A DNA stretch of 64,000 nt, taken from assembly GCA_035552155.1 (NCBI GenBank), contig DASZLX010000022.1:2514-66513 (forward strand), read 5' to 3'. The stretch comes from Verrucomicrobiia bacterium. Lineage in GTDB: Bacteria; Verrucomicrobiota; Verrucomicrobiia; Limisphaerales; DASXHY01. Shown piece by piece: positions 19,644-45,826 of the stretch. Made by a program: the position numbers and the translations under genes. Positions within the stretch are counted from its first letter, which is position 1; each line of letters starts with the position of its first letter. The notes beneath the pieces are model-generated. The model was not told the origin of the DNA. It was given only the letters and a program-made list of their open reading frames with translations, and searched no databases.

Positions 19644-19673
19644 CAAGGGCGAAAGAGTTCATTTCGGAATTGC

Positions 19674-21162: not shown

Positions 21163-21164
21163 AA

Positions 21165-23969: not shown

Positions 23970-23976
23970 GGGAGAA

Positions 23977-24747: not shown

Positions 24748-25157
24748 GGCAGGAAAAAAACCTCCTTTGTATCGGACCAGATTTTGCCGGCAACGGCAGC
24801 GTCCGGCAACGGCAATTGGCACGGGTCTGTTTCCCGCCACCAACGTTGCGTTTCCGGATCCGCCGCCATGTTTTTCATGTCCTGGTCAAAATTTGTGCCG
24901 GTGTATTCGAGGTAGGCAAAAAGATAAAGCTCGCCGTTGATCTTCTTCTCATGAATGGAGAAATTCTGGATGTGGCTGGCTTTGATTTGCTTTAACACAC
25001 CCGGCCAGGGTGCCGCGTGAAGCTGATGATAATAATCCGCCTTTTCGGGTTTGAGGCCGGTAACCCAGGCGTACCGTTGAGGCGGATGTTGCGCCGCGCA
25101 ACCGGGCCAGGAACCGAGCGCAACTGCGCAAAATAAAAATGGAAGCAAACGTCTCAT
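24744..25157 (-). CDS. L-rhamnose/L-fucose mutarotase (RhaM) family protein with an N-terminal signal/lipobox-like peptide
   Basis: RhaM-like core YAWVTGLKPEK..YYHQLHAAPWPGVL..I..NFSIH...LFAYLEY.G..F...M...A..P..QRWW. It is preceded by MRRLLPFLFCAVALGSWPGC. Confidence 0.75.
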   Translation of the reverse strand: MRRLLPFLFCAVALGSWPGCAAQHPPQRYAWVTGLKPEKADYYHQLHAAPWPGVLKQIKASHIQNFSIHEKKINGELYLFAYLEYTGTNFDQDMKNMAADPETQRWWRETDPCQLPLPDAAVAGKIWSDTKEVFFLP

Positions 25158-26844: not shown

Positions 26845-26853
26845 GAACACGGG

Positions 26854-27103: not shown

Positions 27104-28129
27104 ATGGAACAACCCACCCTCAAGGCCATTTATCAGACTCGCCGCAAGCCTTACGAGATCGATACGTGCGAGCCGCAGGTCCGCGCCGTGAAGGAGGGGA
27201 AAATCAATTTGCACGCCCTCACCAAGGGGCATTATCCGGGTTCAAAATTCCCTTCGGACGTGCTCCCCGGACTGAACAGCATTGGGTTTTGGGACGGTGC
27301 CGGACCGCAGGATTGGGGGCTCAACGAACATCGAAACGAGGGTGTGGAAATTGTTTTTCTGGAAACCGGGCGCATGGCTTTCATGGTCGACAAACGCCGA
27401 TTTGATTTGGGCCCGGGGAACCTCACCATCACGCGCCCTTGGCAATTGCACAAACTCGGTGATCCGAACATCGGCCCCGGACGACTACATTGGTTGATTC
27501 TTGATGTCGGCGTGCGGCGCCCCAATCAGGAATGGCGCTGGCCGGATTGGCTGGTTTTAACGCGTGAAGACCTCGATGAGTTGACCCGCAAACTGCGCCA
27601 CAACGAAACACCAGTGTGGAAGTCGACGTCCGACATCGCGCAAACGTTTCAAAAAATCGCGCAATGCATTCTGGATTGGAAACGGCCCCATTCCGTCTCG
27701 CGCATGATTAGCAAACTCAATCAACTTTTCGTCGGCATTCTCGACGCGCTGACCGCGCAGCAGACCGACGAAAACCCAGACCTTACCTCCCGGCGCCGCA
27801 CCGTGGAATTATTCCTGAAAGACCTCGCGGAAAATCCCGTCAGCAGCCGCGAGCTTTGGACGCTCAGCCAGATGGCCCAGCAATGCGGCATGGGAGTGAC
27901 GGCATTCTCAAAATACGCGCGCGAATTGGTAAACGTCGGCCCGATGGAGTACCTGAATCAGTGCCGTCTCGACCATGCGGCGAAGCAGTTGCGCGAGAAA
28001 CCGGAGCTTTCCGTAACGGACATCGCCTTCGCCAACGGTTTTAATTCCAGCCAGTACTTTGCCACGTGCTTTCGCAGGCGATTCAAACTTTCCCCGACCC
28101 ATTTTCTTGCGGAAAAAAGCGGTCATTAA
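27104..28129 (+). CDS. AraC family transcriptional regulator (cupin-like N-terminal domain plus AraC HTH)
   Basis: The C-terminal AraC HTH signature region is TVELFLKDL......LWTLSQMAQQCGMGVTAFSKYARELVNVGPMEYLNQCRLDHAAKQL......VTDIAFANGFNSSQYFATCFRRRF. Confidence 0.85.
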   Translation: MEQPTLKAIYQTRRKPYEIDTCEPQVRAVKEGKINLHALTKGHYPGSKFPSDVLPGLNSIGFWDGAGPQDWGLNEHRNEGVEIVFLETGRMAFMVDKRRFDLGPGNLTITRPWQLHKLGDPNIGPGRLHWLILDVGVRRPNQEWRWPDWLVLTREDLDELTRKLRHNETPVWKSTSDIAQTFQKIAQCILDWKRPHSVSRMISKLNQLFVGILDALTAQQTDENPDLTSRRRTVELFLKDLAENPVSSRELWTLSQMAQQCGMGVTAFSKYARELVNVGPMEYLNQCRLDHAAKQLREKPELSVTDIAFANGFNSSQYFATCFRRRFKLSPTHFLAEKSGH

Positions 28130-29411: not shown

Positions 29412-29738
29412 TCTTCCAGATCGCCAATTGAGAAATGCTCAATTTGAATGCCAGCAAAAGTGCCGGCAACATCGTTTTGCATGAGTTTTTTCTGATTCGT
29501 CAGTGATTAGTGACTGAGTACTTGGCAGCTTGACGAAACATCGAAAAACGCCCATTCCACTTGCCCCCGTTGCAGCGAAGCTTTGCGGTCTTGTTGTCAC
29601 CCTGTTCAAAAGCCGACACACTTTTTGCCCTCGATATGTCTGGTCGGAACTCGCCAACAAAAATTAACGCTACCCTTTCGCTTTATTTTTCAACCGTTTG
29701 GAAATCCCTTTCCGATTCTCTGGCCCAAAATGGATCCA

Positions 29739-29754
29739 TGGCATGTCCAGTGCT
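29739..29754 (+). promoter_or_regulatory. Sigma-54-type -24/-12 promoter candidate (TGGCAT-N5-GTGCT)
   Basis: Exact GG-N10-GC spacing, about 190 nt upstream of the ureohydrolase ATG. Confidence 0.45.
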
Positions 29755-29942
29755 TGTGAGTCGGCATGGCTGTTTTCATTAAAACCAAATCGTCGCAGAC
29801 GTTTGACGATAGCCATTTCTTCCAGCGCCTCACGCTGATTGACATCTGCTGCGGACCTCCCATCCGGTCCTGAGCCCACCAGCGCGTTCCGGTTCTACGG
29901 AACCTATGTCTCCAGAAATTAACCGTCCGTAATTTTGTACTT

Positions 29943-31439
29943 ATGGGTTTTGGTCATTCACATCCTAAACGTATTCGCAGAGTCCGTTCAGTCACTAAAG
30001 CAGCGCAACACGATCTGGCGCACACCGAAGGCAAAGAACATCACGATGTTCCCGGCCATGCGTTCAATCCTGGCGTGCATCACCACGCCGATAAGCCCGG
30101 TGCGCAAAGCAAATATCACTCGCCGCCCGCCGGTGAAAACTGGCCGCCCTTTCCAGATCTGCCGAGTTCGCATCATCCGCACCCGGAACATCCCGAGGGC
30201 TATCCCTGGAAACCGGTGCAACACGCGGATTACGGCGAAGTCGGCCACGTGCCGCCCGGGCACGCGCATCCGGAAATTTTTGATCCCGCCGTTCGCCAGG
30301 GCGCGTGGGCGAAATATCGCGAAGCCGAACTCGGCTCCAAGGGATGGAAGGAGGAAGTCGAGCGCTGCATTGAATTCGGCCTCGAAGCCGCGCCTTCGAT
30401 CAAAGATCGCACGATCTCGACATTCGCTCGCGGCGAATTGCCGCACTTCGCCGGCATCAACACGTTTTGCAAAACGCATTACCTCGAAGACGTCAAAAAG
30501 GTTTCCGGCTTTGATGCCGCGGTCATCGGTGTGCCATTTGATATTGGCACCACGTATCGCAGCGGCACGCGTTTCGGCCCGCAAGCCATTCGCCGCATCT
30601 CGGCGCTTTACGGCACTTATAATTATGAACTCGGTGTTGACCTGCGCGAATCACTGAAGTGGTGCGACGTCGGCGACGTGTTCGCCATTGCGAACATCGA
30701 AAAGGGTTTCGACCAAATCTCCAAAGCCGTCGCGCACGTGCGCTCCAACGGCGTGTTTCCCATCATGCTGGGTGGCGATCATTCGATTGGTTATCCCGAT
30801 GTGCGCGGCATCGCGCCTTACATCGATGGCCCGGTCGGGATTATCCATATCGATCGTCACGTGGACACGCAGGAAACGGACATGGATGAACGCATGCACA
30901 CGTGTCCGTGGTTCCATGCCACGAATATTCCGAACGCGCCGCCGGTTAATCTCGTGCAACTCGGCATCGGCGGCTGGCAGGCGCCACGGCCGGGTGTAAA
31001 AGTCGGCCGCTCGCGCGGCACCAGTGTGCTCACCATTGAAGACATCGTGATGATGGGTGTCGATAAGGCCGCTGAAATCGCGCTCGACATCGCCTGGAGC
31101 AATGGCGCGAAAGCCGTTTATCTCAGCTTCGACGTGGATTCGCTGGACGCCGGCTTCGTTCCCGGCACCGGCTGGCCGGAACCGGGCGGCTTCCTCCCGC
31201 GTGAAGTCTTGCGCTTGCTGCGCCTCGTCGCCCGCGAAGGTTTATGCGGAATGGAAGTCGTTGAAGTCGCTCCACAATACGACGTGGGCGACAAAACCGC
31301 GCTAATCGGCACGCGTGCCATCATGGACGTGCTCGCGACGCTGGTTAACGAAGGCAAGCTCGGCAAAAAACCGGAAACCAAATTGCCACCGCCCCCGTAT
31401 TGGCCGGAGCGCCGGAAGAAGAATACTAAAAAGAAATAA
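29943..31439 (+). CDS. Arginase/agmatinase-family ureohydrolase with a histidine-rich N-terminal extension of about 165 aa
   Basis: Ureohydrolase motifs GGDHSIGYP, IIHIDRHVDTQ, SFDVDSLDAGFVPGTGWPEPGGF and VEVAPQYD. There are 19 His in the first 110 residues (counted), and a lysine-rich C-terminal tail. Confidence 0.85.
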   Translation: MGFGHSHPKRIRRVRSVTKAAQHDLAHTEGKEHHDVPGHAFNPGVHHHADKPGAQSKYHSPPAGENWPPFPDLPSSHHPHPEHPEGYPWKPVQHADYGEVGHVPPGHAHPEIFDPAVRQGAWAKYREAELGSKGWKEEVERCIEFGLEAAPSIKDRTISTFARGELPHFAGINTFCKTHYLEDVKKVSGFDAAVIGVPFDIGTTYRSGTRFGPQAIRRISALYGTYNYELGVDLRESLKWCDVGDVFAIANIEKGFDQISKAVAHVRSNGVFPIMLGGDHSIGYPDVRGIAPYIDGPVGIIHIDRHVDTQETDMDERMHTCPWFHATNIPNAPPVNLVQLGIGGWQAPRPGVKVGRSRGTSVLTIEDIVMMGVDKAAEIALDIAWSNGAKAVYLSFDVDSLDAGFVPGTGWPEPGGFLPREVLRLLRLVAREGLCGMEVVEVAPQYDVGDKTALIGTRAIMDVLATLVNEGKLGKKPETKLPPPPYWPERRKKNTKKK

Positions 31440-31521
31440 CCTCGATGAATTTGAGTCCGCCGGAAATAGATCGTTACGCGGGGCTATTCTGAAATCAAAA
31501 CAACCAAGAAAGGAAAACCAA

Positions 31522-32493
31522 ATGAAACTTAAAAAACTATTGGCAGCGGGACTCCTCGGGCTAATGAGTCTGAGCGCGGTCACTGCGGCGCCCATTAAAA
31601 TCGGTTACAGTGATTGGCCGGGATTCACCGTGCTCGAAGTGGCCAAGCAAAAGGGTTGGTTCAAGGAGGCCGGACTCGACGTGGAACTCGTCTGGTTTGA
31701 ATATTCGCCATCCATTGATGCTTTTGCGGCGGGGAAAATCGATGGCGTCACGATTGTCGCCGGTGATGATATGGTGACGGGCGCCAGCGGCGCCAAAAGC
31801 AAAATCGTTTGCCTCATCGATTACAGTGAAGGCAGCGATATGATTATCGGCGCGCCCGGCGTCGAATCCATCCATGATTTAAAAGGAAAAAAAGTGGGCA
31901 TTGAACTCACACTGGTGGAACACGAACTCCTCCTGCAGGCGCTCAAAGCCAACGGCATGAGCCAATCCGATGTGACACTCGTGGGAACTTCCACCGACAA
32001 AACGCCCCAAGCGCTTGCCTCGGGACAGGTTTCGGCCATTGGCGCCTGGTACCCGGTTTCCGGTCAGGCCCTGAAAACTGTTCCCGGCTCCAAAAAATTA
32101 TTCACCAGCGCGGATGCCAAGGGACTCATCTTCGACGTCATCGCCGTGAACCCGACCAGTTACGCGCAGCACAAAGAAGATTGGGCGAAGATCACCGCCA
32201 TATATTATAAATGCGTGGATTACCTAAAGGACCCGAAGACGATGGATGACGCCGTTAAGATCATGGCCGCCAAAGTCGGAGCGGACCCGGCTGAATACGC
32301 CAAGAACATTCCCGGCACGCATTTCCTCACGTTGGCGGAAGCCAAGGCTGCTTTGAAGAAGAGCCATGAGATGTCGTCCCTCTACGGTTCAATGGAGATG
32401 AGCGACAAATTCTATCTCGAAAACAAAGTCTATAAAGATTCGCAAAAGCCCTCGGATTACGTTGTGCCGGGAATCGTCAATGGCTTGAAATAG
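31522..32493 (+). CDS. ABC transporter substrate-binding protein, NitT/TauT (NMT1/THI5-like) family
   Basis: Signal peptide MKLKKLLAAGLLGLMSLSAVTA, then IKIGYSDWPGFTVLEVAKQKGWFKEAGLDVELVWF. An AAGGAAA ribosome-binding sequence lies upstream of the ATG at 31522. Confidence 0.8.
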   Translation: MKLKKLLAAGLLGLMSLSAVTAAPIKIGYSDWPGFTVLEVAKQKGWFKEAGLDVELVWFEYSPSIDAFAAGKIDGVTIVAGDDMVTGASGAKSKIVCLIDYSEGSDMIIGAPGVESIHDLKGKKVGIELTLVEHELLLQALKANGMSQSDVTLVGTSTDKTPQALASGQVSAIGAWYPVSGQALKTVPGSKKLFTSADAKGLIFDVIAVNPTSYAQHKEDWAKITAIYYKCVDYLKDPKTMDDAVKIMAAKVGADPAEYAKNIPGTHFLTLAEAKAALKKSHEMSSLYGSMEMSDKFYLENKVYKDSQKPSDYVVPGIVNGLK

Positions 32494-32535
32494 TTATTCC
32501 CATGTAGCGGGGGTCTGTGACCGCCATCATAAACT

Positions 32536-33621
32536 ATGGCACACCACGATTGGCTCGGACTAAAAAACGAATTGCCGCATCGGCGGAAGATTCTGCTCAC
32601 GGTGCTGTCGTTCCTCGTCCCGCTCGCGTTGTGGTGTGCCATTAGTTATATCCCGAGCCTCTGGCATCCGTTGGTGCACGTGACGAATGTCGGCAGCGTC
32701 GACTACTTCGTAACGGGTATGGATGTGCCGCGCGCGACTTTCGATCAGGAAGTGGCGAAAGCGCTCGCGGCCGGCCAGGAAGTGCCACAGGGTTATCTCG
32801 TCAATCCCGTTTACCTTCCCGCCCCCCACAAAGTCGCGCGCGCGTTTTACACCGCGTTCAAAACACCGCCCCGATTGCAAAATGAACCATGGCTTCACGA
32901 AAGCCTCGGCCACAGCATTCGCACAATTTTTCTTGGCTTCGTTATTTCGTCCATCTTCGGGTTGCCGTTGGGAATTTTATGCGGGTCTTATCGCTTTTTC
33001 GCAAAACTGCAGGAACCGTTCATTGAATTTTTTCGCTATCTCCCCGCGCCCGCGTTTGGCGCGTTGTGTGTGGCCATTCTCGGAATCGACGATGCTCCGA
33101 AAATCGCGATCATTTTCATCGGCACATTTTTTCAACAAGTCCTCGTCATCGGCAACACGGTCCGCAAAGTGGACCCGGCGTTGCTTGAAGCCGCGCAGAC
33201 ACTCGGAGCTCGTGGTCTCCGCCTCATGACCCATGTCATCATTCCCGCGTCTATTACGGACATTTACACCGACATGCGCATCCTGTTGGGTTGGGCTTGG
33301 ACGTATCTGATCGTCGCGGAAGTTGTGGGCACCATGTCCGGCATCACGCTCTTCATTAATCAACAGGCGCGCTATCGGAATTTCGACAATGTCTATGCGG
33401 CCATCGCCATGATCGGGATCATCGGTCTCTCCACTGACATGTTCCTCGCGTGGCTCGGCAACGTTCTATTTCCGTGGAAACGTCCGGCGCGCGCCGGTTC
33501 AACAAAGCGCACGCGGCTGAGAAAACTTTCACCGAAATCTCCTGTGCTGGAAATCCCGGACACACCCCCGGTCAAAATCGTGGAAGAAAAACCTACCGTC
33601 GAATTGAATGCCGCTCAGTGA
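32536..33621 (+). CDS. ABC transporter permease, NitT/TauT family, with extended N- and C-termini
   Basis: BPD-transporter EAA-like region LLEAAQTLGARGLRLMTHVIIPAS. 361 aa. Confidence 0.85.
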   Translation: MAHHDWLGLKNELPHRRKILLTVLSFLVPLALWCAISYIPSLWHPLVHVTNVGSVDYFVTGMDVPRATFDQEVAKALAAGQEVPQGYLVNPVYLPAPHKVARAFYTAFKTPPRLQNEPWLHESLGHSIRTIFLGFVISSIFGLPLGILCGSYRFFAKLQEPFIEFFRYLPAPAFGALCVAILGIDDAPKIAIIFIGTFFQQVLVIGNTVRKVDPALLEAAQTLGARGLRLMTHVIIPASITDIYTDMRILLGWAWTYLIVAEVVGTMSGITLFINQQARYRNFDNVYAAIAMIGIIGLSTDMFLAWLGNVLFPWKRPARAGSTKRTRLRKLSPKSPVLEIPDTPPVKIVEEKPTVELNAAQ

Positions 33622-34507
33622 ACTAAAACTTCCCGATTACCGCGAGCAATCGCCGGCCGTCGCCGCGCGATTCGAGCGCATCCGCCAGCGCAAAGTCATC
33701 CTCAGCGTGCGCGGGCTGAAGAAATGTTTTGGCCCGAACGGCAACACCCACGTCGTTTTCGAAAACGTCTCGCTGGATATTCATCGCCGCGAATTCATTT
33801 GCGTTGTCGGCGCATCGGGTTGCGGCAAATCCACGCTGGCACGCATCGTAGCCGGCCTGGACGAAGCCACTGCCGGAAAGATTTTGCTCAACGAAAAACC
33901 AGTGAACGGCCCTGGTCCGGACCGTGGGATGGTGTTTCAAGGTTACACTTTGTTCCCATGGCTCTCGGTGTGCAGCAATGTCATGTTCGGCCTGAAAATG
34001 CATGGCAAAGACGATAATACTGCCAAGGCCGAGGCGCGCCAATGGCTCGACATGGTCGGTTTGTCGAAATTTGAAAATTCGTATCCGCATGAACTTTCCG
34101 GTGGCATGAAACAACGTGTGGCCATCGCCCGCGCGCTCGCGAACAACCCACGCATCCTCATCATGGATGAACCCTTCGCGGCGCTCGACGCGCAAACGCG
34201 CTGCCAGATGCAATCGTACCTCCTCCAGATTTGGAAAAAGATCGATGCTACCATTTTGTTCATTACACATGACCTCGACGAGGCGGCGTACCTTTCAGAT
34301 CGCATCCTCGTGATGGGCGCAAATCCCGGCCGTGTGGTTGAGTTTATCGAAAACCCTGTTTCGCGCCCGCGCAGCAATGCGCAGTTTCTTTCGCCGGAGT
34401 TTTTGGCGCTGAAAAAGCGGCTCGAGGAACACATTCATCCGCCTATGGAAGTCGCTGAGAAATTGCCGATGATCAAACTCACGGAGGCTGGCGATGAAGT
34501 TGAATAA
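33608..34507 (+). CDS. ABC transporter ATP-binding protein, NitT/TauT family
   Basis: Walker A GASGCGKST, signature LSGGMKQRVAIARAL and Walker B ILIMDEPFAALD. It overlaps the permease gene by 14 nt. Confidence 0.9.
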   Translation: MPLSELKLPDYREQSPAVAARFERIRQRKVILSVRGLKKCFGPNGNTHVVFENVSLDIHRREFICVVGASGCGKSTLARIVAGLDEATAGKILLNEKPVNGPGPDRGMVFQGYTLFPWLSVCSNVMFGLKMHGKDDNTAKAEARQWLDMVGLSKFENSYPHELSGGMKQRVAIARALANNPRILIMDEPFAALDAQTRCQMQSYLLQIWKKIDATILFITHDLDEAAYLSDRILVMGANPGRVVEFIENPVSRPRSNAQFLSPEFLALKKRLEEHIHPPMEVAEKLPMIKLTEAGDEVE

Positions 34508-34907
34508 TCCCGGCAGCACCGGCATCCCGCTGGCCCGTATCCTTCCAACTGTTTTTCGCTGGCTCAGCACCATTCTTTTTATTTCCGCGATTGGCACGAT
34601 GCTGACGCTGCTGGGGTCCGACGCATTGAATGCGCTCACGTTCACCACGGTACACCGTCACGCAGGAGCATTGTCGTTCATGTTGATCGGCTCGTCCTAC
34701 GTCGTATTGCAAATCAGTTTGCGACGGCCTCGGAGCGAAAAGTTGAAGGCGATTATGATCGGAATGGCTTTTCTTTTTTGGGGCTCGGAACAATTCCTCC
34801 CGCCCAGCCTGTTTGCGACCGCAATGGATACCGCCGTCGTCGTCATTTTCGTAGTCGATTTAAGCCTGATAATCATTGAACATCTAAAACGTAATCATTA
34901 TGAGTAA
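34494..34907 (+). CDS. Small integral membrane protein (about 4 TM), unknown function
   Basis: 137 aa with four hydrophobic segments. A GGAGG sequence lies 7 nt upstream of the ATG. It overlaps both neighbouring genes (14 nt and 8 nt). Confidence 0.55.
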   Translation: MKLNNPGSTGIPLARILPTVFRWLSTILFISAIGTMLTLLGSDALNALTFTTVHRHAGALSFMLIGSSYVVLQISLRRPRSEKLKAIMIGMAFLFWGSEQFLPPSLFATAMDTAVVVIFVVDLSLIIIEHLKRNHYE

Positions 34908-35604
34908 CCTCCCCCTGAACCAGGCCCCTGCGCTACTGATCGTCGCAGCCGGAATCGGCGCCGGACTTGTTCACGTTTTCTCCGGCCCAGACCATCTCGC
35001 GGCGATTGCGCCCCTTGCCCTGAAACGCCAGCGCGGCGCATGGCTCACCGGTTTGCGTTGGGGAATGGGCCACGCCTCGGGTGTAATTTTTGTGGGCGTT
35101 CTCTCGCTGATTTTGCGCGGCCTGTTGCCGGTTGATTTGATTTCGAGCTGGAGCGATCGCCTCGTCGGCGCGCTCCTGATCGGCATCGGCCTTTGGACGT
35201 TGCGCAAAGCGTTGCTCATCCACACGCACACGCATGCGCACGAGGGCGAATCACACGAGCACATTCACATTCACGGTCGTAACAATGCGAAAGCGCACAG
35301 TGTGAAACGACATGTGCACACCCACGCCGCGTTTGGTATTGGCACACTGCACGGGCTTTCCGGCAGTTCGCATTTTCTGGCAATCATTCCCGCGCTGGCC
35401 ATGCCATCCACCGCTTTGGCCATAATATATCTGGCCTGCTACGGTGTCGGCACGGTGTTGGCGATGATGCTATTCGCCTCGGCCATCAATTCATTTTCCA
35501 TGCGCTTTGCCGCCACGGCAAAAGTCTATCGTGGATTCATGTTTGCGTGTTCCGGCCTGGCGGTCACGATTGGCTGCATCTGGCTGTTCGGTCTCGGTTT
35601 TTAA
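34900..35604 (+). CDS. Putative nickel permease (HupE/UreJ-like motif) with a central His-rich loop
   Basis: HVFSGPDHLAAIAPLA is repeated after the loop as LHGLSGSSHFLAIIPALA. The loop HTHTHAHEGESHEHIHIHGRNNAKAHSVKRHVHTH holds 12 His in 35 residues (counted). The gene sits directly upstream of ureD. Confidence 0.6.
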   Translation: MSNLPLNQAPALLIVAAGIGAGLVHVFSGPDHLAAIAPLALKRQRGAWLTGLRWGMGHASGVIFVGVLSLILRGLLPVDLISSWSDRLVGALLIGIGLWTLRKALLIHTHTHAHEGESHEHIHIHGRNNAKAHSVKRHVHTHAAFGIGTLHGLSGSSHFLAIIPALAMPSTALAIIYLACYGVGTVLAMMLFASAINSFSMRFAATAKVYRGFMFACSGLAVTIGCIWLFGLGF

Positions 35605-35610
35605 GTTCGC

Positions 35611-36462
35611 GTGAAGCTTTCGGAAAACAATTTCAAAATCGCGCCGAACACAAAAGGCTGTGCGCATCTGGAAGTTGAAATGGTGTTTGGTGAAAGCACG
35701 GCCACGTCCTCATCTGCGACCAGTCCGCTGAAACTTCTCACACCCTGCTCGCGCGGCAAAAGTGTATGGGCTTATGCGAGCAATTTCGGCGGCGGACTCG
35801 TCGCCGGTGACGAAACGCAACTGGATCTGCGCATCGGCACTGAAGCACGTTGCTTTTTCGGCACGCAGGCATCGACCAAAGTTTACCGCAACCCCGCACA
35901 ACTCCCTTGTTCGCACACCACCCGGGCGAGGTTGGAGAGTGGCTCTCTGCTCGTTTTTGCCCCGGATGCAATCCAGGCCTTTGCCGGCTCAAGCTACCGT
36001 CAACGCCAGGAATTTCATCTCCCTGACGACGCGGGATTGGTTCTGGTGGACTGGTTCACTGCCGGCCGGGCTGCTCGCGGCGAACGCTGGGCCTTCGACA
36101 ATTTTCAAAGCCGCAATGATGTCTTCATTGATGAACGTTGCGTGTTTGTCGACTCCATCCTGTTGAATCCTGACGCCGGCGCAATGGCATCGCCACATCG
36201 CGTCGGACGCTTCAATTGTTTTGCAATGCTCCTTCTTATCGGCGCACCGATGCGCGAAGCCGCGACGCACCTGATAACCGAAATTTCGTCGCGCCCGGTT
36301 GAACGCAATACGATGCTCCTGCGCAGCGCCAGCCCCGTCCAGGACGGCGTTGTATTACGCGCCGCCGGCGAAGATGTCGAGAGCGTCAGTCGCGAACTGA
36401 AAAACCACTTAGCTTTCCTCGCCGCTTTTCTTGGCGACGATCCCTGGGCCAGAAAATGGTAG
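35611..36462 (+). CDS. ureD: Urease accessory protein UreD (UreH)
   Basis: UreD-like pattern: GGGLVAGDETQLDLRIGTEARCFFGTQASTKVYR and LVDWFTAGR. GTG start. Position is consistent with the urease operon. Confidence 0.8.
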   Translation: MKLSENNFKIAPNTKGCAHLEVEMVFGESTATSSSATSPLKLLTPCSRGKSVWAYASNFGGGLVAGDETQLDLRIGTEARCFFGTQASTKVYRNPAQLPCSHTTRARLESGSLLVFAPDAIQAFAGSSYRQRQEFHLPDDAGLVLVDWFTAGRAARGERWAFDNFQSRNDVFIDERCVFVDSILLNPDAGAMASPHRVGRFNCFAMLLLIGAPMREAATHLITEISSRPVERNTMLLRSASPVQDGVVLRAAGEDVESVSRELKNHLAFLAAFLGDDPWARKW

Positions 36463-36498
36463 TCACCATTTAACTCATTTAACAAAGTTAACGAACCC

Positions 36499-37254
36499 AT
36501 GCACCTGACCCCTCGCGAAATCGAAAAGTTGATGTTGCACAACGCGGGTTTTCTCGCGCAGAAACGCCTTGCGCGCGGTCTGCGCCTGAATCATCCGGAG
36601 GCGGTCGCGCTGATTGCCGCGCAATTACTTGAGTTTATCCGCGATGGCAAGAGCGTGGCGGAACTTATGAACCTTGGCCGCAAGTTTCTCGGACGAAACC
36701 AGGTGATGTCAGGTGTGCCGGAAATGATCCACGACGTGCAGGTGGAAGGCACCTTTCCCGACGGCTCCAAACTCGTCACCGTGCACCACCCCATCGCGAG
36801 TGAAAACGGCGATCTTGCGCTGGCGCTGCGAGGAAGCTTTCTTCCCGCGCCGAACGTTTCCATTTTCAATTCCGTTGCCGACGAGGGCGAACCCGGTGCA
36901 GTGAAAGCGCGCGACGGCGAAATCCAACTGAACGCTGGCCGCCAGACCGCCGAAGTGCGTGTGACGAATCTCGGCGATCGCCCCATCCAGGTCGGCAGCC
37001 ACTATCATTTTATTGAAACAAATGCCGCGTTGAAATTCGACCGTGGCGCAGCTTACGGGAAACGTTTGGACATTCCCGCCGGGACTGCGGTGCGATTCGA
37101 GCCTGGCGAAACCAAAACCGTCCGGCTCGTCGACATCGCCGGCAAAAAAGTCATTCGCGGTGGAAATAATTTGGCGAACGGAAAAGTGTCTGCTGCGGGA
37201 AAGAAGGCGGCATTGAAAAAAGTGAGGGCAAAAAATTTCGCAAACAGAGATTAA
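36499..37254 (+). CDS. ureAB: Urease gamma-beta fusion subunit (UreAB)
   Basis: N-terminal [39 protein letters not shown] (gamma). C-terminal [19 protein letters not shown]...[16 protein letters not shown] (beta). Confidence 0.9.
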
Positions 37255-37327
37255 TGCGCTACAGGAACTGGGACTGGGCGGCGATTTCTCTGCGCCTTCT
37301 GTGTCCCTGTGGCAAAAATAAATTGTT

Positions 37328-39043
37328 ATGTCCCATAAAATGAAACGCCGGCATTACGCCGATATGTTCGGGCCGACAACGGGCGATAAAGTCCGCCTCG
37401 GCGATACGTCGCTGATTCTCGAAGTGGAAAAGGATTTCACCGTTTATGGCGATGAATGCAAATTCGGCGGCGGCAAGGTTATTCGCGAAGGCATGGGGCA
37501 GGCCGCTGGCGTCGGCGACAAAGACGCGCTCGACTGCGTCATCACGAACGCGTTAGTCGTTGATTGGAGCGGCATTTACAAGGCCGATATCGGCATCAAA
37601 AACGGCCTCATCAGCGGTATCGGCAAAGCCGGAAATCCCGATGTCATGGCTCGCGTGACCAAAAACATGATTATCGGTGTCACCACCGAAGTCATTGCGG
37701 GTGAGGGATTGATTCTGACCGCGGGCGGACTCGATACACATATTCATTTCATTTGTCCGCAACAGGCGCACGAAGCAATCGCCGCCGGCCTGACTACCAT
37801 GGTTGGCGGCGGCACCGGTCCTGCAGTCGGAACCTGCGCGACTACTTGCACGCCCGGTTCATTCAACATGCGCATGATGCTCCGCGCCGTGGATGATTTG
37901 CCGCTCAATTTCGGATTCACCGGCAAGGGAAATACCGCCATGCCCGCCGGGTTGCTCGAACAAATCCAGGCCGGGGCTATCGGTCTGAAACTCCACGAAG
38001 ATTGGGGCACCACCCCAGCTGCCATTGACTGCTGCCTTGGCATCGCCGACGAAACCGACACGCAAGTCACGATTCACACCGATACTTTGAACGAGTCCAC
38101 TTTCGTCGAGGGCACCATTGCCGCGTTCAAAGGCCGCACGATTCACACGTATCATTCGGAAGGCGCGGGCGGCGGACACGCGCCGGATATCATCCGCATT
38201 TGCGGCGAAGCGAATGTTCTCCCGAGCTCCACCAATCCCACGCGTCCGTATACCGTCAACACCATCGACGAACATCTCGATATGTTGATGGTCTGTCATC
38301 ATCTCGACCCGAATTTGCCGGAGGATGTGGCGTTTGCCGAAAGCCGCATCCGGGGTGAGACCATTGCTGCCGAGGACATCCTGCACGATCTCGGCGCCAT
38401 CAGCATGATGAGTTCGGATTCGCAAGCCATGGGACGCATCGGCGAAGTCATTACGCGCTCGTGGCAAACCGCCGATAAGATGAAAAAGCAGCGCGGCCGT
38501 TTGCCCGGCGAAAAAGGTGACAACGATAATCTCCGCATCAAACGTTACCTCTCGAAATACACCATCAACCCTGCGCTTGCGCACGGAATGGGACATCTCA
38601 TCGGCTCAATCGAAGTCGGCAAACTCGCGGACCTCGTGTTGTGGAAGCCCGCGTTTTTCGGCGCCAAGCCGGAGATGGTCATCAAAGGCGGCGTCATTGC
38701 CTGGGCGCAAATGGGCGACCCCAACGCCAGCATTCCAACACCGCAACCGGTTTTCATGCGCCCGATGTTCGGCAGCTTCGGCAAAGCGACCGGCCCGTGC
38801 TCCGTCGCCTTCGTAAGCCAGCTTTGCAAAAGCAAAAACATTGCAAAAAATTACGGCCTCACCAAACGCATCGCGGCCGTGAAGGGCTGCCGCAAAATGA
38901 CCAAGCGCGATTTAAAATGGAACAACGCGCTCCCGAAGATAACCGTAGATCCAGAGACCTACGAAGTTCGTGCCGATGGCGAATTGCTGACGTGCGAACC
39001 GGCGAAACTGCTGCCACTCGCGCAACGCTACTACCTTTTCTGA
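37328..39043 (+). CDS. ureC: Urease alpha subunit
   Basis: 571 aa. Canonical motifs: [51 protein letters not shown] and MVCHHL. Confidence 0.95.
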
Positions 39044-39052
39044 CGGTGAGAA

Positions 39053-39144
39053 CGAATGGTAACATGCCGAATGCCGAATGCCGAATGGCGGATGATACCA
39101 CCCACCGGGTCGATTCTCCATTCGTCATTCGTCATTCGTCATTC
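39053..39144 (+). repeat. Inverted pair of heptanucleotide tandem repeats: (ATGCCGA)x3 and (TCATTCG)x3
   Basis: 39064-39088 can pair with 39118-39142. That gives 7 perfect bp, then 6 of 7 per unit, with a 29-nt loop. The 5' arm contains ATGs at 39064, 39071, 39078, 39085 and 39092. Confidence 0.7.
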
Positions 39145-39783
39145 AATCAATGGCTCCTGTGGCAACTCGTCGATTCCGCGTTTCCAGCCGGCGGCTTCGC
39201 TCATTCCGCGGGGCTCGAAGCCGCATGGCAACATGGCGAGGTAAAAAATCGCGGCGATCTGATTTCCTGTGTCGAAGCCGGTCTTCATCAACTCGGCCAC
39301 ACCGCGCTGCCATTCGTGAACGCCGCACATAGGGAGCCTGAGCGGTTGGAGGAATTGGATCATCTCTGCAATGCGTTCACGACCAATCACGTGGCGAATC
39401 GTGCCAGCCGCGCGCAAGGTAAAGCTTTTTTGACAGCGGCGCAGCGCGTCTTTGCCGCTGGCCGCCAACATCCGGCTTTGCCGTTTCATCATTTCCCGTG
39501 TGCTTTCGGGGCCGCCTTGAGATGGCTCGATGCTCCGAAAGAGACAACAATGCGCCTGTTTTTCTTCAACCATCTTCGCGGCATGATGGCCGCAGCCGTT
39601 CGCTTGAATATCGTCGGCCCCATGGAAGCGCAGACCATTCAACACCACCTGGCCTCAACTGCCGAACACGTTTTGAAACAATGCGCTTCACTCACGCTCG
39701 ACGATATCGCCCAGACCTCGCCACTGCTGGATTTATGGCAAGGCGCGCAGGACCGGCTTTACTCGCGGCTCTTCCAAAGTTGA
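39064..39783 (+). CDS. ureF: Urease accessory protein UreF
   Basis: LLWQLVDSAFPAGGFAHSAGLE UreF signature. In-frame starts lie at 39064 or 39085. The longer ORF-track version overlaps ureC and is rejected. Confidence 0.85.
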   Translation: MPNAECRMADDTTHRVDSPFVIRHSSFNQWLLWQLVDSAFPAGGFAHSAGLEAAWQHGEVKNRGDLISCVEAGLHQLGHTALPFVNAAHREPERLEELDHLCNAFTTNHVANRASRAQGKAFLTAAQRVFAAGRQHPALPFHHFPCAFGAALRWLDAPKETTMRLFFFNHLRGMMAAAVRLNIVGPMEAQTIQHHLASTAEHVLKQCASLTLDDIAQTSPLLDLWQGAQDRLYSRLFQS

Positions 39784-39786
39784 TTT

Positions 39787-40515
39787 ATGAGACTGCTCCT
39801 TCACTTTCATTCCCACGGCGGAAATGGCCATTCGCATCCGGACACTCCCGGCCATTTCCACGATCGCGACCTTCCTCACGACCGCGATTTCAATCAGCGC
39901 GCGTTCACTGTGGGAGTCGGTGGCCCAGTCGGCAGCGGCAAGACGGCATTGATGCTTCAATTGTGCAAACGTCTGCGCGAAACCCGGAGCATCGCCGCTG
40001 TCACCAATGATATTTTTACAAAGGAAGACGGCGAGTTTTTAACCAGGCATCAAGCGCTCGAAGCCGATCGCATCCGCGCTGTTGAAACCGGCGGCTGCCC
40101 GCACGCCGCCATTCGCGAGGACATTTCCTCAAACCTCCTTGCGCTGGAGGAGTTGCATCAAAAATTTCATCCCGACATTCTTCTCATCGAATCCGGCGGT
40201 GACAATCTGGCTGCCTGCTTCAGCCGTGAACTGGCCGATTACACCATCCAGGTGATCGACGTCGCCGGCGGTGATAAAATCCCCCGCAAAGGCGGCCCGG
40301 GAATTACTCAAACCGATTTGTTGGTGATCAATAAAACCGATCTCGCCCAGGCCGTGGGCGCGGATTTAAAAGTAATGGAGCGCGACACAAAAAAAATGCG
40401 CGGCGACGGACCGTTTGTTTTCGCGCAGGTCAAGCACGGCGTCGGCGTGGATGAAATCGTGCAGCAGATTCTTCATCAATGGCAGCATGCGCGCGGCATA
40501 GGACACAAGCATTGA
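39787..40515 (+). CDS. ureG: Urease accessory GTPase UreG with a His-rich N-terminus
   Basis: P-loop [11 protein letters not shown] and the conserved VETGGCPH and ESGGDNL motifs. There are 8 His in the first 31 residues (counted). Confidence 0.95.
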
Positions 40516-40725: not shown

Positions 40726-41946
40726 TTAGAACTGGTATATGATGTTAAGAGCGACCGAAACGGCATTCTTGTTCGACGGTTCGCCGACTACCGTGCCGCC
40801 AAATGGCCGGTCGCCGGTTAGAGAATGATCCCATCGGAATTCGCCGCGGGTAATCACGTTTTTCCAAAGCGAATAGCCCACGGTCAATGTTTCCGAGATC
40901 AGTTGATCGCCGTGTCCGTTGGAAACCAGTCCGTCAAACACACCGGCGCTGCCGGTCGCGTAGTCAATGCGATTCGCGAAGGTCCACTTGTCCATGGTGT
41001 ACATCACATACAGCGCCGTCGCGTTGGCGTAGTCGCTCTTGCTGGTTTGGCCGTATGTATAATCATAGGCTGCGCCCAATGACAATCCGGTCACAGGCAA
41101 TGGAAGGGTGCCGCCGACGTAAATATTACCTTGGTTAAAGCGCGTGCCGCCCGCCGGAACGCCGGTCGAGGCAATGGTCGTCGCGTCCAGCTGATGATCG
41201 CCGACGGTGTATCCAGCGGATAACGTCGCGCCTTTAGCGAATCCAAAACTTTCCGGTGCGGTGAATGTGGCCATCGCCAGATAGGCTTTTTTGGATTCGA
41301 TGGATTGCCGCGCGTTCACTTCGTTATTGAATCCCGCCGCGTTGCCAATGCCGGCCATCAGACTGACTTCATCGTTAACCTTATAATTTGCGGAAATGCC
41401 CGTGTGCGCCGAAGACTCAATGAAGAATCCGTATGAACGGCTCCAGTTTGGATCCTTGTAGGTATCGTACGCCTCGTAGCCATTGTAGGTGCCGAATTGG
41501 CCGACATGAAGCTCAATGCCATTGCCCACCGGCACACGCAGGTTAATGTAGGCTTCATTGAAGGAAAAATCCGTTCCAATGGGTCCCCCGCTGCCGGCAG
41601 TCGCGATGCCGGTTCCACGTTTGGCCGCGCCAGGTCCCATCAACATTTGCACGTGATAGCCTGCTGACCAGCCGCTCGTATCCAGCGGCTTGTCGAGCGT
41701 GAGGCTCACCACGTTCAAATTAAACCCATCCTGCACGTCCGAGCCGTCATAGGTGCGTCCGGGCATGTTGGCATCGCCGGTGCCGAATTTCCAAACGGCG
41801 GTGGTATCGACGTAGCCACTGAGAGTTGTTGACGAGAGCGCGGTCAAAACGGTGCTGGGCGCGGGCGCGTCATCCGCAAGCATTACCGCTGGGAGACTGA
41901 CAAGACCGGCACTCAACAGCATTTTGGTCCACTTACTTATTTTCAT
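40726..41946 (-). CDS. Outer-membrane beta-barrel porin
   Basis: Signal peptide MKISKWTKMLLSAGLVSLPAVMLA, alternating beta-strand pattern rich in G/Y/T, and a C-terminal ...ALNIIYQF with terminal Phe. The start at 41946 is preferred. Confidence 0.7.
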   Translation of the reverse strand: MKISKWTKMLLSAGLVSLPAVMLADDAPAPSTVLTALSSTTLSGYVDTTAVWKFGTGDANMPGRTYDGSDVQDGFNLNVVSLTLDKPLDTSGWSAGYHVQMLMGPGAAKRGTGIATAGSGGPIGTDFSFNEAYINLRVPVGNGIELHVGQFGTYNGYEAYDTYKDPNWSRSYGFFIESSAHTGISANYKVNDEVSLMAGIGNAAGFNNEVNARQSIESKKAYLAMATFTAPESFGFAKGATLSAGYTVGDHQLDATTIASTGVPAGGTRFNQGNIYVGGTLPLPVTGLSLGAAYDYTYGQTSKSDYANATALYVMYTMDKWTFANRIDYATGSAGVFDGLVSNGHGDQLISETLTVGYSLWKNVITRGEFRWDHSLTGDRPFGGTVVGEPSNKNAVSVALNIIYQF

Positions 41947-42011
41947 AATGTGTTTTATAGGTTTCACTTTTGGGTCGTACGCCTTTGTGCGCACTTTGGT
42001 TCAGGAGCGCC

Positions 42012-42517: not shown

Positions 42518-42533
42518 TGGCACATCGGGTGCT
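42518..42533 (+). promoter_or_regulatory. Sigma-54-type -24/-12 promoter candidate (TGGCAC-N5-GTGCT) upstream of urtA
   Basis: Exact GG-N10-GC spacing, about 110 nt upstream of the urtA ATG at 42642. Confidence 0.5.
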
Positions 42534-42641
42534 GAAATGCCGGCGTCAACATGGCCGCATGCATGGCGGCGTGTCGCGACAAAGAATCGAACCATCAGGC
42601 AGAAGAAAACCGAAACTGAACCCACACTCGATATAACCGAT

Positions 42642-43937
42642 ATGAAAAAGACGCTGTCCTTCCTAAAAAAACCATTTCTCGCGTTCAGCCTCGCGGCCGC
42701 GCTGGCCGCTTCCAGCTACGCGGCCGACACAATCAAGGTCGGCATCCTGCATTCGCTCAGCGGCACCATGGCCATCAGTGAAACCTCTTTGCGCGACGTG
42801 TTGCTCTTCACGTTCGACGAGATCAACAAGGCCGGCGGCATCAAAGTGGGCGACAAGAGTTATATGATCGAGCCGGTGGTGGTGGACGGCGCTTCCAACT
42901 GGCCGCTCTTTGCGGAAAAAGCCAAACAACTGCTCGAGGAGGACAAGGTCGCGGTGGTCTTTGGCTGCTGGACCTCGGTGAGCCGCAAGTCGGTGCTGCC
43001 GGTTTTTGAAAAGGACAACGGGCTGCTCTTCTACCCGGTGCAATATGAAGGTGAGGAGCTATCCAAGAACATCTTCTATACCGCCGAAGCTGTGAACCAG
43101 CAGGCGACGCCCGCCGTGGATTATCTGCTCGCCCAGGGTAAAAAGAAATTCTACCTCATCGGCACGGACTACGTGTATCCACAGACCACCAATTTGATCC
43201 TCTACAAATATCTGCTCCTGCACGGCATCAAGATGGAGGACATCGGTGGCGGCTTCCGCAAAGATGATACCGGCAAGGTTATTTCCGCTGGCAAGTATAC
43301 GCCATTCGGCCACACTGATTATCAGCAGATCGTGGCGGAGATTAAGCAGTTTGCGGCCAGCGGTGACGCTTGCGTGCTCAACACCATCAATGGCGATTCC
43401 AACGTGCCTTTCTTCAAGGAAATCGCCGCGGCAGGTTTGACGGCTTCGGATTGTCCGGTGGTTTCCTTCAGCCTCGCGGAAGATGAACTTCGCTCGCTGC
43501 CGACCAAGGACCTCGTGGGTGAGCTCGGTTGCTGGAAGTATTTCATGTCGATCAATTCGCCGGAGAACAAGACGTTCCTGAAAAACTGGAATAGCTGGCT
43601 GAAGGACGAAAGCTATCCCGGCGTCGTGAAGGAAAAACGCGCGGTGGACAGCCCGATGGTCCTTTCCTACGACGGCGTTTACTTGTGGAAAGAAGCTGTT
43701 GAAAAAGCCGGCACTTTTGATGTGGACCAGGTCCGCACCGCCCTCGAGTCCGGCGAAATCAGTTTTGAAGGACCCGGCGGAAAAACCACCATGCAGAAAA
43801 ATCATCATACGATCAGCAACGTTTACATCGGCGAAACCCGCGCCAATGGCCAGTTCAAGATTCTCAAGGAATTCAACAACGTGGCCGGCGAACCTTTCAT
43901 CCTGAAGGGGCTTGACGATAAACTGGCGGCGAAATGA
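42642..43937 (+). CDS. urtA: Urea ABC transporter substrate-binding protein UrtA
   Basis: Signal peptide, then [17 protein letters not shown] and [17 protein letters not shown], which are typical of UrtA. Confidence 0.9.
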
Positions 43938-43992
43938 GGACGCCCGTGATTTGGAGGTGTTGAAGGGAAATTAGAGGGATGCAGAAAAAGGG

Positions 43993-45825: not shown

Positions 45826-45826
45826 C

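Follow-up and report, generated by a model that had tools for sequence, protein, structure and literature searches.

A candidate guanidine-to-ammonia operon with a putative nickel supply of its own and a conserved leader open reading frame in a Verrucomicrobial genome

The DNA analysed here is a 64-kb stretch from a Verrucomicrobiia bacterium (hereafter the window), to whose positions all coordinates refer. Between positions 29739 and 40515 it carries a block of genes predicted to import guanidine, to hydrolyse it to urea and ammonium, and to hydrolyse the urea in turn, behind a sigma-54-type promoter element and a short leader open reading frame (ORF). An ORF check recovered eleven co-directional ORFs on the + strand between 29943 and 40515, at the positions listed in an earlier note made from the sequence alone, and Pfam and NCBIfam searches agreed with the families assigned there, except for a permease whose match is DsbD_2 and a protein with four transmembrane segments (4-TM) that matched no family. 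The elements of the block are the following:

29739-29754, + strand: sigma-54-type -24/-12 promoter element TGGCATGTCCAGTGCT (GG at 29740-41, GC at 29752-53)
29766-29873, + strand: leader ORF of 35 codons, MAVFIKTKSSQTFDDSHFFQRLTLIDICCGPPIRS followed by a stop; candidate regulatory leader or arrest peptide
29943-31439, + strand: gdmH, predicted orthologue of Ni-dependent guanidine hydrolases, 498 aa (PDB matches, signature residues)
29943-30308, + strand: residues 1-122 of GdmH, His-rich extension, followed by the catalytic core from about residue 123
31522-32493, + strand: gimA-like periplasmic substrate-binding protein (SBP) of the NitT/TauT family, 323 aa (Pfam NMT1/NMT1_2)
32536-33621, + strand: gimB-like ABC permease (BPD_transp_1), co-occurring with gdmH in 45 loci
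33608-34507, + strand: gimC-like ABC ATPase (ABC_tran)
34494-34907, + strand: small membrane protein (4-TM), 137 aa as drawn, no known family
34900-35604, + strand: putative Ni2+ permease, DsbD_2-type (PF13386), with His-loop
35611-36462, + strand: ureD (PF01774, E 5e-51)
36499-37254, + strand: fused ureAB, gamma/beta subunits (NF009671, 339.6 bits vs a cut-off of 243)
37328-39043, + strand: ureC, alpha subunit (NF009686, 1018 bits; TIGR01792)
39064-39783, + strand: ureF, start at 39064 or 39085 (PF01730, E 5e-29)
39787-40515, + strand: ureG, His-rich N-terminus (TIGR00101, 278.5 bits)

As first described, gaps between these genes do not exceed 82 nt and overlaps range from 8 to 14 nt. The gaps measure 82 nt between gdmH and the SBP gene, 42 nt between the SBP and permease genes, 6 nt between the His-loop permease gene and ureD, 36 nt between ureD and ureAB, 73 nt between ureAB and ureC, about 20 nt between ureC and ureF, and 3 nt between ureF and ureG; gimB overlaps gimC by 14 nt, gimC overlaps the gene for the 4-TM protein by 14 nt, and the latter overlaps the His-loop permease gene by 8 nt. 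The same eleven genes, in the same order and with the leader, were found in a JGI metagenome contig (L090), which is collinear with window positions 29713-40495 at about 82% nucleotide identity. The collinear stretch starts just 5' of the promoter and stops at the end of ureG, and the flanks differ. This conservation in a second lineage with other flanks indicates that the arrangement is not due to chance. The closest genomes are Verrucomicrobiota metagenome-assembled genomes, and the window also encodes PEP-CTERM and prepilin-type proteins, which are typical of that phylum.

The first enzyme of the block was compared with the solved structures in the PDB. Residues 123-475 of the ureohydrolase matched both solved guanidinases over about 352 residues, namely Synechocystis Sll1077/GdmH (7ESR/7OI1; E 9e-154, 516 bits, 64.5% identity) and the Nitrospira inopinata guanidinase (9FEK; E 6e-153, 513 bits, 63.4% identity). 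The next solved family was a guanidinobutyrase (E 1e-45), and all other solved families scored at most 160 bits. The GdmH alignments begin at chain residues 18 and 24, so that the N-terminal helical segment of the family is covered. The arginase fold was recognised by Pfam (PF00491, E 3e-73), and the six metal ligands H280, D304, H306, D308, D397 and D399 are present and invariant in the homologue alignment. In the comammox study, the guanidinase call was made by four residues, Thr105, His222, Trp313 and Glu344, and Thr105 and Trp313 of N. inopinata correspond to Thr97 and Trp305 of the Synechocystis enzyme (PMC11410670). Residues T204, H319, W411 and E441 of the window enzyme align to this signature in both 7ESR and 9FEK after correction for the +2 offset of the two deposited chains. 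None of the NCBIfam models for agmatinase, arginase and HutG reached its cut-off with the window enzyme. Comparison with the characterised clades, which the earlier note had called for, thus placed the enzyme, by score rather than by a tree, nearer to the guanidinases than to agmatinase, guanidinobutyrase, guanidinopropionase or arginase. The window enzyme is, as far as these comparisons reach, an orthologue of the characterised Ni-dependent guanidine hydrolases, and the guanidinase-level scores, the signature, the metal ligands and the absence of an agmatinase, arginase or HutG match point to guanidine as its most likely substrate. The initial list of substrates thereby narrows: guanidine is retained as the most likely one, and agmatine, guanidinobutyrate and taurocyamine become unlikely. 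As a control for the family, a Guanidine-I riboswitch was found directly 5' of a gdmH homologue in Dactylosporangium fulvum (L061, 9811-9916), and a Guanidine-III riboswitch directly 5' of another in Mycobacterium persicum (L042, 9778-9845).

The second module is a transporter. The NitT/TauT-type SBP, permease and ATPase noted beside the ureohydrolase gene were confirmed by Pfam (NMT1/NMT1_2, BPD_transp_1 and ABC_tran). In Synechocystis, the NitT/TauT system beside gdmH has been named GimABC, and its binding protein GimA (Sll1080) binds guanidine with a Kd of 97 nM via W59, W62, F205, D135 and D233 (PMC12704784). All-against-all clustering of the ORFs from 88 gdmH loci found the SBP cluster in 46 of them, the permease cluster in 45 and the ATPase cluster in 57. 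Homologues of the window SBP are 323 aa long, with 100% coverage, and form more than 120 clusters at ≥77% identity in metagenomes. Residues W32, F35, D106, W176 and D205 of the window SBP stand in the same order and spacing as W59, W62, D135, F205 and D233 of GimA, a mapping made by spacing, with offsets of 27-29, and not by alignment with Sll1080. At the cage-equivalent positions, 42-43 of the 43 gdmH-linked SBPs have an aromatic residue or Asp. By these similarities the window importer belongs to the gdmH-linked GimABC type.

The third module is a urease set that is complete for ureA/B/C, ureD, ureF and ureG according to Pfam and NCBIfam. It was proposed to lack ureE, and indeed there is no space for this gene between the urease genes and none among the scanned ORFs of the window. 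An Rfam match to 5_ureB_sRNA (RF02514) on the - strand at 37482-37774 was rejected as a small RNA (sRNA) gene: the same match above the gathering score, antisense to the 5' part of ureC, appeared in every ureC examined (the window, L089, L090, L001, L019, L025, L029, L042 and L061), and it looks like a reflection of the coding conservation of the urease alpha subunit.

Upstream of gdmH, the TGGCAT-N6-TGCT element TGGCATGTCCAGTGCT lies at 29739-29754; sigma-54-type elements were recognised by a GG and a GC ten bases apart in a TGGCAC-N5-TTGCW-like context. The pattern TGGCAY-N6-TGCW has two matches in the 64 kb, TGGCATGTCCAGTGCT at 29739 and TGGCACATCGGGTGCT at 42518, both of which precede nitrogen-scavenging operons, the one at 42518 standing before urtA. 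TGG..TGCT is invariant in the upstream regions of 7 Verrucomicrobial gdmH genes, and in 71 of 76 unique related leaders the element is found at a constant distance. The promoter element of the sigma-54-type unit proposed earlier is thus real and conserved. A guanidine riboswitch was searched for in the window and in seven Verrucomicrobial loci, where no Rfam match upstream of gdmH reached the gathering score, and the segment 28900-30100 gave no match at E≤10; the same method recovered the two riboswitches in L061 and L042.

Alignment of the interval between promoter and gdmH revealed a near-invariant block with variation at every third base, which coincides with the end of the + strand ORF at 29766-29873 (MAVFIKTKSSQTFDDSHFFQRLTLIDICCGPPIRS). 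The C-terminus of the encoded peptide consists in the window of FFQRLTLIDICCGPP and three further residues. Homologous leader ORFs are present in every Verrucomicrobial gdmH locus for which upstream DNA was available, and a metagenome scan with a degenerate pattern for IDICCGPP returned 84 stretches, of which 72 contain the full peptide. Statistics were drawn from 75 unique sequences. At codon positions 1, 2 and 3 the entropy was about 0.57, 0.41 and 1.44 (codons outside the search pattern), the consensus reads SQ(E/T)FDDSxFFQRLTLIDICCGPP, and the ORFs are 33-36 codons long; exactly three variable residues follow FFQRLTLIDICCGPP in 52 of the 75, and the stop codon is TGA in 59. This pattern of variation is a coding signature, with a translation-type constraint, and the constraint acts at the protein level and not at the RNA level. 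Since the start codon, ATG or GTG, comes 12-15 nt past the -12 GC, the ORF begins at the predicted transcription start or no more than about 3 nt away from it; judged from this spacing, it would be leaderless or have a leader of at most 3 nt, with the start predicted at 29763-29766. Where at least 4 kb of downstream sequence was available (22 metagenomic loci), gimA followed in 20, and the first gene was gdmH in 9 and encoded a creatininase-family protein (PF02633) in 10. The neighbouring sigma-54-driven leader of urtA has no such ORF. The peptide had no match in Pfam, NCBIfam or Rfam, and its motif was in no paper found. The conservation of about 20 C-terminal residues, the diproline near the stop codon and the occurrence in one kind of operon together form the pattern of a regulatory leader or arrest peptide, and a regulatory leader peptide is probably what the ORF encodes. 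The 35-codon ORF is a conserved mini-gene without earlier description and probably controls the block.

In single-sequence folds of some leaders, the segment after the leader ORF stop codon (GAACCCA) pairs with the start of gdmH (AUGGGUUU); this pairing is missing in more distant leaders. A Bryobacteraceae genome (L023:18408-18987 and 19045-19851) carries two tandem variant leader peptides (..LRLTAMDVCCGPP..) before a gene for a GAF-ANTAR regulator, convergent with ureG/ureC, so the leader motif reaches beyond Verrucomicrobiota. A second mini-ORF starting with ATGGGGTTTGG (MGFG(R/C)SH...) was observed between the leader ORF and the creatininase-family gene in L104, L131, L151, L152, L171 and further metagenome loci; it resembles the 5' end of gdmH (MGFGHSH) and could be what is left of a deleted gdmH or a regulatory piece that was retained. 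A small ORF on the minus strand of the leader, called by the gene finder in L089, L090 and L001, was discarded, since it is conserved neither in length nor in frame and the variation has a periodicity that suits the + frame.

A translated leader ORF need not be a sensor. It could be a constitutive starter that loads ribosomes onto a leaderless sigma-54 transcript and couples transcription to translation, an arrangement to which a start codon coinciding with the predicted transcription start would be suited; it could carry a diproline pause whose strength reports elongation factor P (EF-P) or translation status, given that GPP-type diproline motifs need EF-P and the GPP is invariant; or it could be an attenuator reading the two invariant Cys codons. 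That no alternative RNA structure with covariation was found speaks for this group of explanations as well. Nevertheless, the roughly 20 residues before the GPP are conserved (SQxFDDSxFFQRLTLIDICC) beyond the needs of a loading ORF, a PP pause or an attenuator, the leader is confined to gimABC-containing operons (20 of 22) and missing before urtA, and a cysteine signal would make no sense for guanidine and urease genes. We therefore hold a non-sensing role possible rather than probable. The boldest version of the regulatory reading, in which the leader ORF represents a new class of metabolite-sensing arrest peptide that responds to intracellular guanidine or a guanidino compound and switches on gimABC operons, and in which the N-terminal extension makes GdmH self-sufficient for nickel, is speculative and on present evidence unlikely. 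In this version, guanidine would be sensed in the exit tunnel through the invariant aromatic and acidic residues (FDD...FF...D), the chemistry being that of the guanidinium cage of GimA.

Both GdmH and urease would need nickel. Among the scanned window ORFs, neither a HypA/HypB-like (GhaA/GhaB) protein nor UreE was found. A motif and BLAST screen of the 88 loci detected HypA/HypB-like genes near gdmH in 4 of 80 genome loci, with HypA- and HypB-like genes together in L014 and L017 and a HypB-like gene only in L018 and L025; the comammox guanidinase locus likewise has no nickel chaperones nearby (PMC11410670). The block does contain several His-rich segments. The counts given earlier, 12 His in the 35-residue loop of the permease (residues 108-142) and 8 in residues 1-31 of UreG, were reproduced, and the first 122 residues of GdmH hold 19 His. 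The permease itself had been labelled HupE-like, a label without support from Pfam: its sole Pfam match is DsbD_2 (PF13386; 27.6 bits vs a cut-off of 24.9), and HupE/UreJ (PF04955/PF13795) gave no match even at E≤1. It is DsbD_2-type and possibly UreH-like; the UreH of strain TB-90 is presumably another DsbD_2 member. UreH-type transporters adjoin urease, hydrogenase and SodN genes (PMC2667541), and a homologue of the window permease with 67% identity lies directly before ureA in L001. The gene of the small membrane protein always stands directly before that of the His-loop permease and overlaps it by 8 nt (L089, L090 and L175). For this 4-TM protein, described from the outset as being of unknown function, Pfam and NCBIfam gave no match, and none of its 100 homologues is named; most of these are 121 aa long, so the true start may lie about 48 nt downstream of 34494. 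With urease and hydrogenase-like genes as neighbours, the context of the two proteins fits a nickel uptake pair.

In L176:6672-9375 (and in L177), Complex1_49kDa/Oxidored_q6 genes, which resemble those of a group-4 [NiFe] hydrogenase, are directly followed by the gene of a homologue of the small membrane protein (50% identity) and then by an OPT-family transporter gene; this neighbourhood hints at a nickel-related role of the small protein.

The extension of GdmH is conserved in sequence within a clade of 468-508 aa proteins and includes the motifs HHPHPxHPEGYPW and PPGHPHPEVFDPA. No other protein family among 1.84 billion representatives carries it; six short fragments matched, and there were no fusions that could have given a clue to its function. 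We infer that the His-rich N-terminus of UreG and the GdmH extension take over the nickel-holding role of UreE and of GhaA/GhaB. The extension could also have no part in nickel delivery and be a disordered tail serving localisation, solubility or general metal buffering, with GdmH obtaining its nickel unaided, via UreG or via an unlinked HypA/HypB pair. The N. inopinata guanidinase, which has no nearby chaperones, became active in E. coli cultures supplied with Ni (PMC11410670), hypA/hypB are missing near most gdmH genes whether or not the N-terminus is His-rich, and the AlphaFold2 model gives no fold to residues 1-122, all of which would suit a mere tail. Such a tail would not explain why the extension is kept in sequence and not in composition alone, why shorter His tracts evolved independently at the same N-terminus in other lineages, or why the extension is confined to GdmH; a role outside nickel delivery is therefore tenable, though we lean against it.

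Short N-terminal His tracts were also observed in GdmH proteins of Actinomycetota, Rubrobacteria, Abditibacteriota and Dormibacterota (loci including L027, L041, L064, L011, L046, L072 and L078), with MGGNHHHHHNG, MGFAHHHHRHG and MGWFHSHDDGSHGHGHGHSH as examples, and most members of the family begin with M-G/S-F-x-H-x-H. This N-terminal pattern may be a general nickel-capture motif of GdmH proteins.

The eleven genes might adjoin one another and still form more than one transcription unit, with the sigma-54 promoter driving gdmH-gimABC and the nickel and urease genes having a promoter or promoters of their own. In Synechocystis, gdmH-ghaAB and gimABC are separate transcripts although they are adjacent (PMC12704784). 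Other genes stand between gimC and the small membrane protein/permease pair in L089 and L175, and the L175 cluster ends with that pair, without urease, so that the modules are separable in evolution. Inside the block, terminator-like and promoter-like sites showed no excess over shuffled sequences and none fell in any intergenic gap, the promoter scan covering the sigma-70-type consensus only, which leaves this explanation some room. What makes it rather unlikely is the packing at the very junctions concerned (14 nt of overlap between gimC and the 4-TM gene, 8 nt between the latter and the permease gene, a 6-nt gap before ureD), the absence of intergenic terminator-like sites from the block, the occurrence of just two sigma-54 matches in the window, neither of them within the block, and the conservation with L090, which covers exactly the promoter to the ureG stop and no further. 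Recent horizontal transfer of the block was considered and rejected, as its G+C content (0.55-0.57) equals that of the flanks.

A survey of the neighbourhoods of orthologues, suggested at the start, covered 88 gdmH loci and found ureC repeatedly beside gdmH and, in the 46 loci mentioned, the SBP cluster. With each species represented by a single genome, 19 of 80 gdmH loci have ureC at a distance of at most 10 kb (13 of the 47 with full flanks; on the same strand in 14). The linkage is spread over at least seven phyla, with cases from Actinomycetota, Acidobacteriota, Armatimonadota, Chloroflexota, Dormibacterota and Gammaproteobacteria. By this count, gdmH-urease linkage is recurrent, far above chance, and speaks for selection on the logic of the pathway. 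In model organisms, urease is stated or implied to be unlinked (PMC11410670). The idea that the arrangement is a peculiarity of this genome must accordingly be given up, as gdmH-urease adjacency is common across phyla. It had also been regarded as an arrangement not recognised among described systems, which remains true of the fusion to urease and is not true of the gdmH/gimABC pair. The literature searched, which did not cover Funck et al. 2022, contained no description of gdmH-gimABC within a urease operon.

Several further observations concern these neighbourhoods. Urease genes adjoin gdmH in both genomes with a riboswitch, upstream on the same strand in L061 and divergently in L042. In a Phycisphaeraceae genome (L017:9959-12288), gdmH is present as a tandem pair with hypA/hypB-like genes behind it, and the 621-aa protein P0017 looks like an internally duplicated arginase-family protein. 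Directly 3' of gdmH, 12 loci (e.g. L019:11293-12786) encode a conserved protein, about 500-640 aa long and without a Pfam match, found in Bryobacterales and Poribacteria (L079) and in several loci placed between gdmH and ureD.

Relatives also carry longer versions of the block. L089, a 5.9-Mb genome contig, shares the same backbone in three collinear pieces separated by two insertions. The one between gdmH and gimA encodes creatininase-family and glutamine synthetase (GS)-like proteins; the other, which parts gimC from the gene of the small membrane protein, encodes deacetylase, Rieske oxygenase and FGE-sulfatase-like proteins along with one of 293 aa. In L089, urtABCDE lies directly upstream, and other relatives carry gdmH-gimABC at the end of urtABCDE. 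The extra genes were seen in L089:7746-16941, L001:11461-19642, L086:11669-21470 and L175:1-8998; this conserved set comprises creatininase-family (PF02633) and GS-like (Gln-synt_C) proteins, sometimes with GATase and a GerE regulator, and also polysaccharide deacetylase, Rieske oxygenase, FGE-sulfatase-like, short-chain dehydrogenase/reductase (SDR) and AP_endonuc_2 proteins. This set may channel a guanidino compound, substituted or cyclic, towards guanidine or urea. That the enzyme and importer of the window themselves act on such a compound (methylguanidine or a creatinine-derived one), the window operon being a trimmed version of a longer pathway, is improbable: gdmH/gimABC orthologues are indeed interleaved in L089, L001, L086 and L175 with creatininase-family, GS-like, GATase and Rieske oxygenase genes and likewise with FGE-sulfatase-like, deacetylase and AP_endonuc_2 genes, and a creatininase-family gene, not gdmH, comes first in 10 of 22 leader ORF loci, but the Thr and Trp residues by which the characterised enzymes restrict their pocket to free guanidine (PMC11410670) and the cage residues of guanidine-binding GimA (mapped by spacing) are kept, the window and L090 lack all the extra enzymes and yet have gdmH, gimABC and urease intact under selection, and the extra enzymes may serve to free guanidine from other compounds.

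We consider it likely that the block at 29739-40515 is a nitrogen-scavenging operon with which a soil Verrucomicrobium converts external guanidine into three ammonia. All computational tests run agree with the coupling proposed in the earlier note, in which one unit takes up an amidino compound, hydrolyses it to urea, hydrolyses the urea in turn and supplies the nickel. Several points weigh against this reading. Substrate, metal, transcription start, co-transcription of the eleven genes and any arrest by the leader are inferred from what the sequence shows, namely gene content and order, their conservation, family membership by sequence and the translation-type constraint on the leader. No gene for a bacterial enhancer-binding protein (bEBP), the activator that a sigma-54 promoter needs, was found among the scanned window ORFs. 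An RNA switch in the leader was not apparent, RNAalifold keeping two small hairpins with a covariation term near 0, and the spacer is C-rich (C 26.6% vs G 22.3%) too weakly for a Rho-utilisation signature to be called. The AlphaFold2 model of GdmH, built from 15 sequences, has a mean predicted local distance difference test (pLDDT) score of 54, with residues 1-172 below 50, and is uninformative on the extension. The correspondence with the GimA cage rests on residue spacing, and in relatives a 90%-identical importer is encoded among creatininase-family, GS-like, Rieske oxygenase and deacetylase genes, so the imported compound could be a substituted guanidine.

In the proposed mechanism, nitrogen limitation would cause an NtrC-type activator, encoded outside the window, to fire the sigma-54 promoters at 29739 and 42518. 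The transcript would start at, or no more than about 3 nt from, the start codon of the leader ORF, whose invariant C-terminal FFQRLTLIDICCGPP would probably slow or arrest the ribosome and so set downstream expression, possibly in response to guanidine. The GimABC-type importer would take up guanidine, GdmH would split it into urea and ammonium, and UreAB-UreC, matured by UreD, UreF and UreG, would hydrolyse the urea. The small membrane protein and the DsbD_2-type permease would bring in Ni2+ for both enzymes, and the histidine-rich UreG N-terminus and GdmH extension would hold nickel instead of UreE and GhaAB. The urea importer UrtABCDE and a BBP2 porin, both encoded next to the block, would feed external urea to the same urease.

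These neighbouring elements are:

40726-41994, - strand: BBP2 (OmpL-like) beta-barrel porin (PF07642, E 4e-34); not a member of the operon
42518-42533, + strand: second sigma-54-type element TGGCACATCGGGTGCT, before urtA
42537-48592, + strand: urtABCDE, urea ABC importer (Peripla_BP_5/6, two BPD_transp_2, two ABC_tran)

The urtABCDE genes thus stand 2 kb downstream of the operon, and the true start of urtA is probably the MKKTLSF codon near 42642. The porin gene is divergent from urtABCDE; a gene of the same family directly precedes urtABCDE-gdmH-gimA in the contig of a 90%-identical GdmH (P0002), and outer-membrane entry for urea or guanidine is a possible function of the porin. On the other side of the block, the window holds, at 20356-24843 and 25162-26850 on the - strand and at 27104-28129 on the + strand, a sugar-acid-type catabolic set of fumarylacetoacetate (FAA) hydrolase, Amidohydro_2, enolase-superfamily and SDR genes, accompanied by an SSF symporter and an AraC-type regulator. 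These genes appear to be unrelated to the guanidine operon.

GdmH with urease, GimABC and urease clusters that lack ureE and have a permease of their own are all known, and so is the pathway. The novelty lies in their fusion into one conserved block, the absence of a riboswitch and of GhaAB, the long His-rich extension, the unnamed partner of the permease and, above all, the leader ORF. Guanidine has been recognised only recently as a widespread nitrogen source, and the two systems studied, those of a cyanobacterium and of a comammox Nitrospira, have a riboswitch and a urease encoded elsewhere. In abundant soil Verrucomicrobia the cassette would be a self-contained route from guanidine through urea to ammonia with its own nickel supply; it could serve as a marker for guanidine use in metagenomes and as a compact module for engineering. 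It also offers a natural experiment on the insertion of nickel into an arginase-fold enzyme without HypA/HypB-like helpers, and the leader ORF bears on the question of guanidine sensing in bacteria without the riboswitch. If the boldest version holds, the His-rich segment would replace GhaA/GhaB, and the leader would stand in, in Verrucomicrobia, for the guanidine riboswitches of other phyla. If the leader ORF is responsive to a ligand, the few nascent peptides known to sense small molecules would gain a new member.

The Synechocystis guanidine assimilation locus was reportedly described by Funck and co-workers in 2022. The gdmH (sll1077)-ghaA-ghaB and gimABC (sll1080-82) genes of Synechocystis PCC 6803 encode the same enzyme family and the same importer type as the window (PMC12704784; PMC8390497), and in both cases urease completes the pathway. 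Synechocystis induces its locus under nitrogen limitation via NtcA, and here the sigma-54 promoter implies an equivalent control. Unlike Synechocystis, the window lacks the ghaA/ghaB maturases and the guanidine-I riboswitch, its GdmH has an extra His-rich extension of 122 residues, and a leader ORF occupies the site of the riboswitch; its urease, accessory genes and nickel permease share one block, whereas the Synechocystis urease is encoded elsewhere (PMC11410670). The N. inopinata locus (guanidine-I riboswitch, APC permease, guanidinase) encodes an enzyme of the same clade, without chaperone genes and with a need for urease (PMC11410670). It relies on an APC permease, a riboswitch and an unlinked urease, whereas the window has an ABC importer and a sigma-54 promoter with a leader ORF.

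The urease part resembles known ureE-less clusters, which have the order ureD-AB-C-F-G, a fused gamma/beta subunit (an NCBIfam family) and a His-rich UreG like that of the window. A His-rich UreG is known from ureE-less organisms such as plants and actinomycetes. As in the window, a His-loop membrane protein is encoded directly upstream in such clusters (UreH or HupE/UreJ beside urease: PMC2667541). The window differs in that its permease is of the DsbD_2 type and not HupE/UreJ, is preceded by the unnamed membrane protein of 121-137 aa, and shares its operon with a second nickel enzyme.

For the leader ORF, the known arrest peptides offer a comparison: TnaC responds to tryptophan, SpeFL to ornithine and the fungal arginine attenuator peptide to arginine. 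Like these, it is a short ORF that lies within the 5' leader of an operon for catabolism, with conservation of about 20 C-terminal residues, a proline near the stop codon and an occurrence confined to one pathway; it has no sequence similarity to TnaC, SpeFL or the arginine attenuator and stands, predicted to be leaderless, behind a sigma-54 promoter. In other phyla, the same place 5' of gdmH is taken by Guanidine-I/II/III/IV riboswitches (RF00442, RF01068, RF01763 and others), of which the leader ORF may be the functional counterpart.

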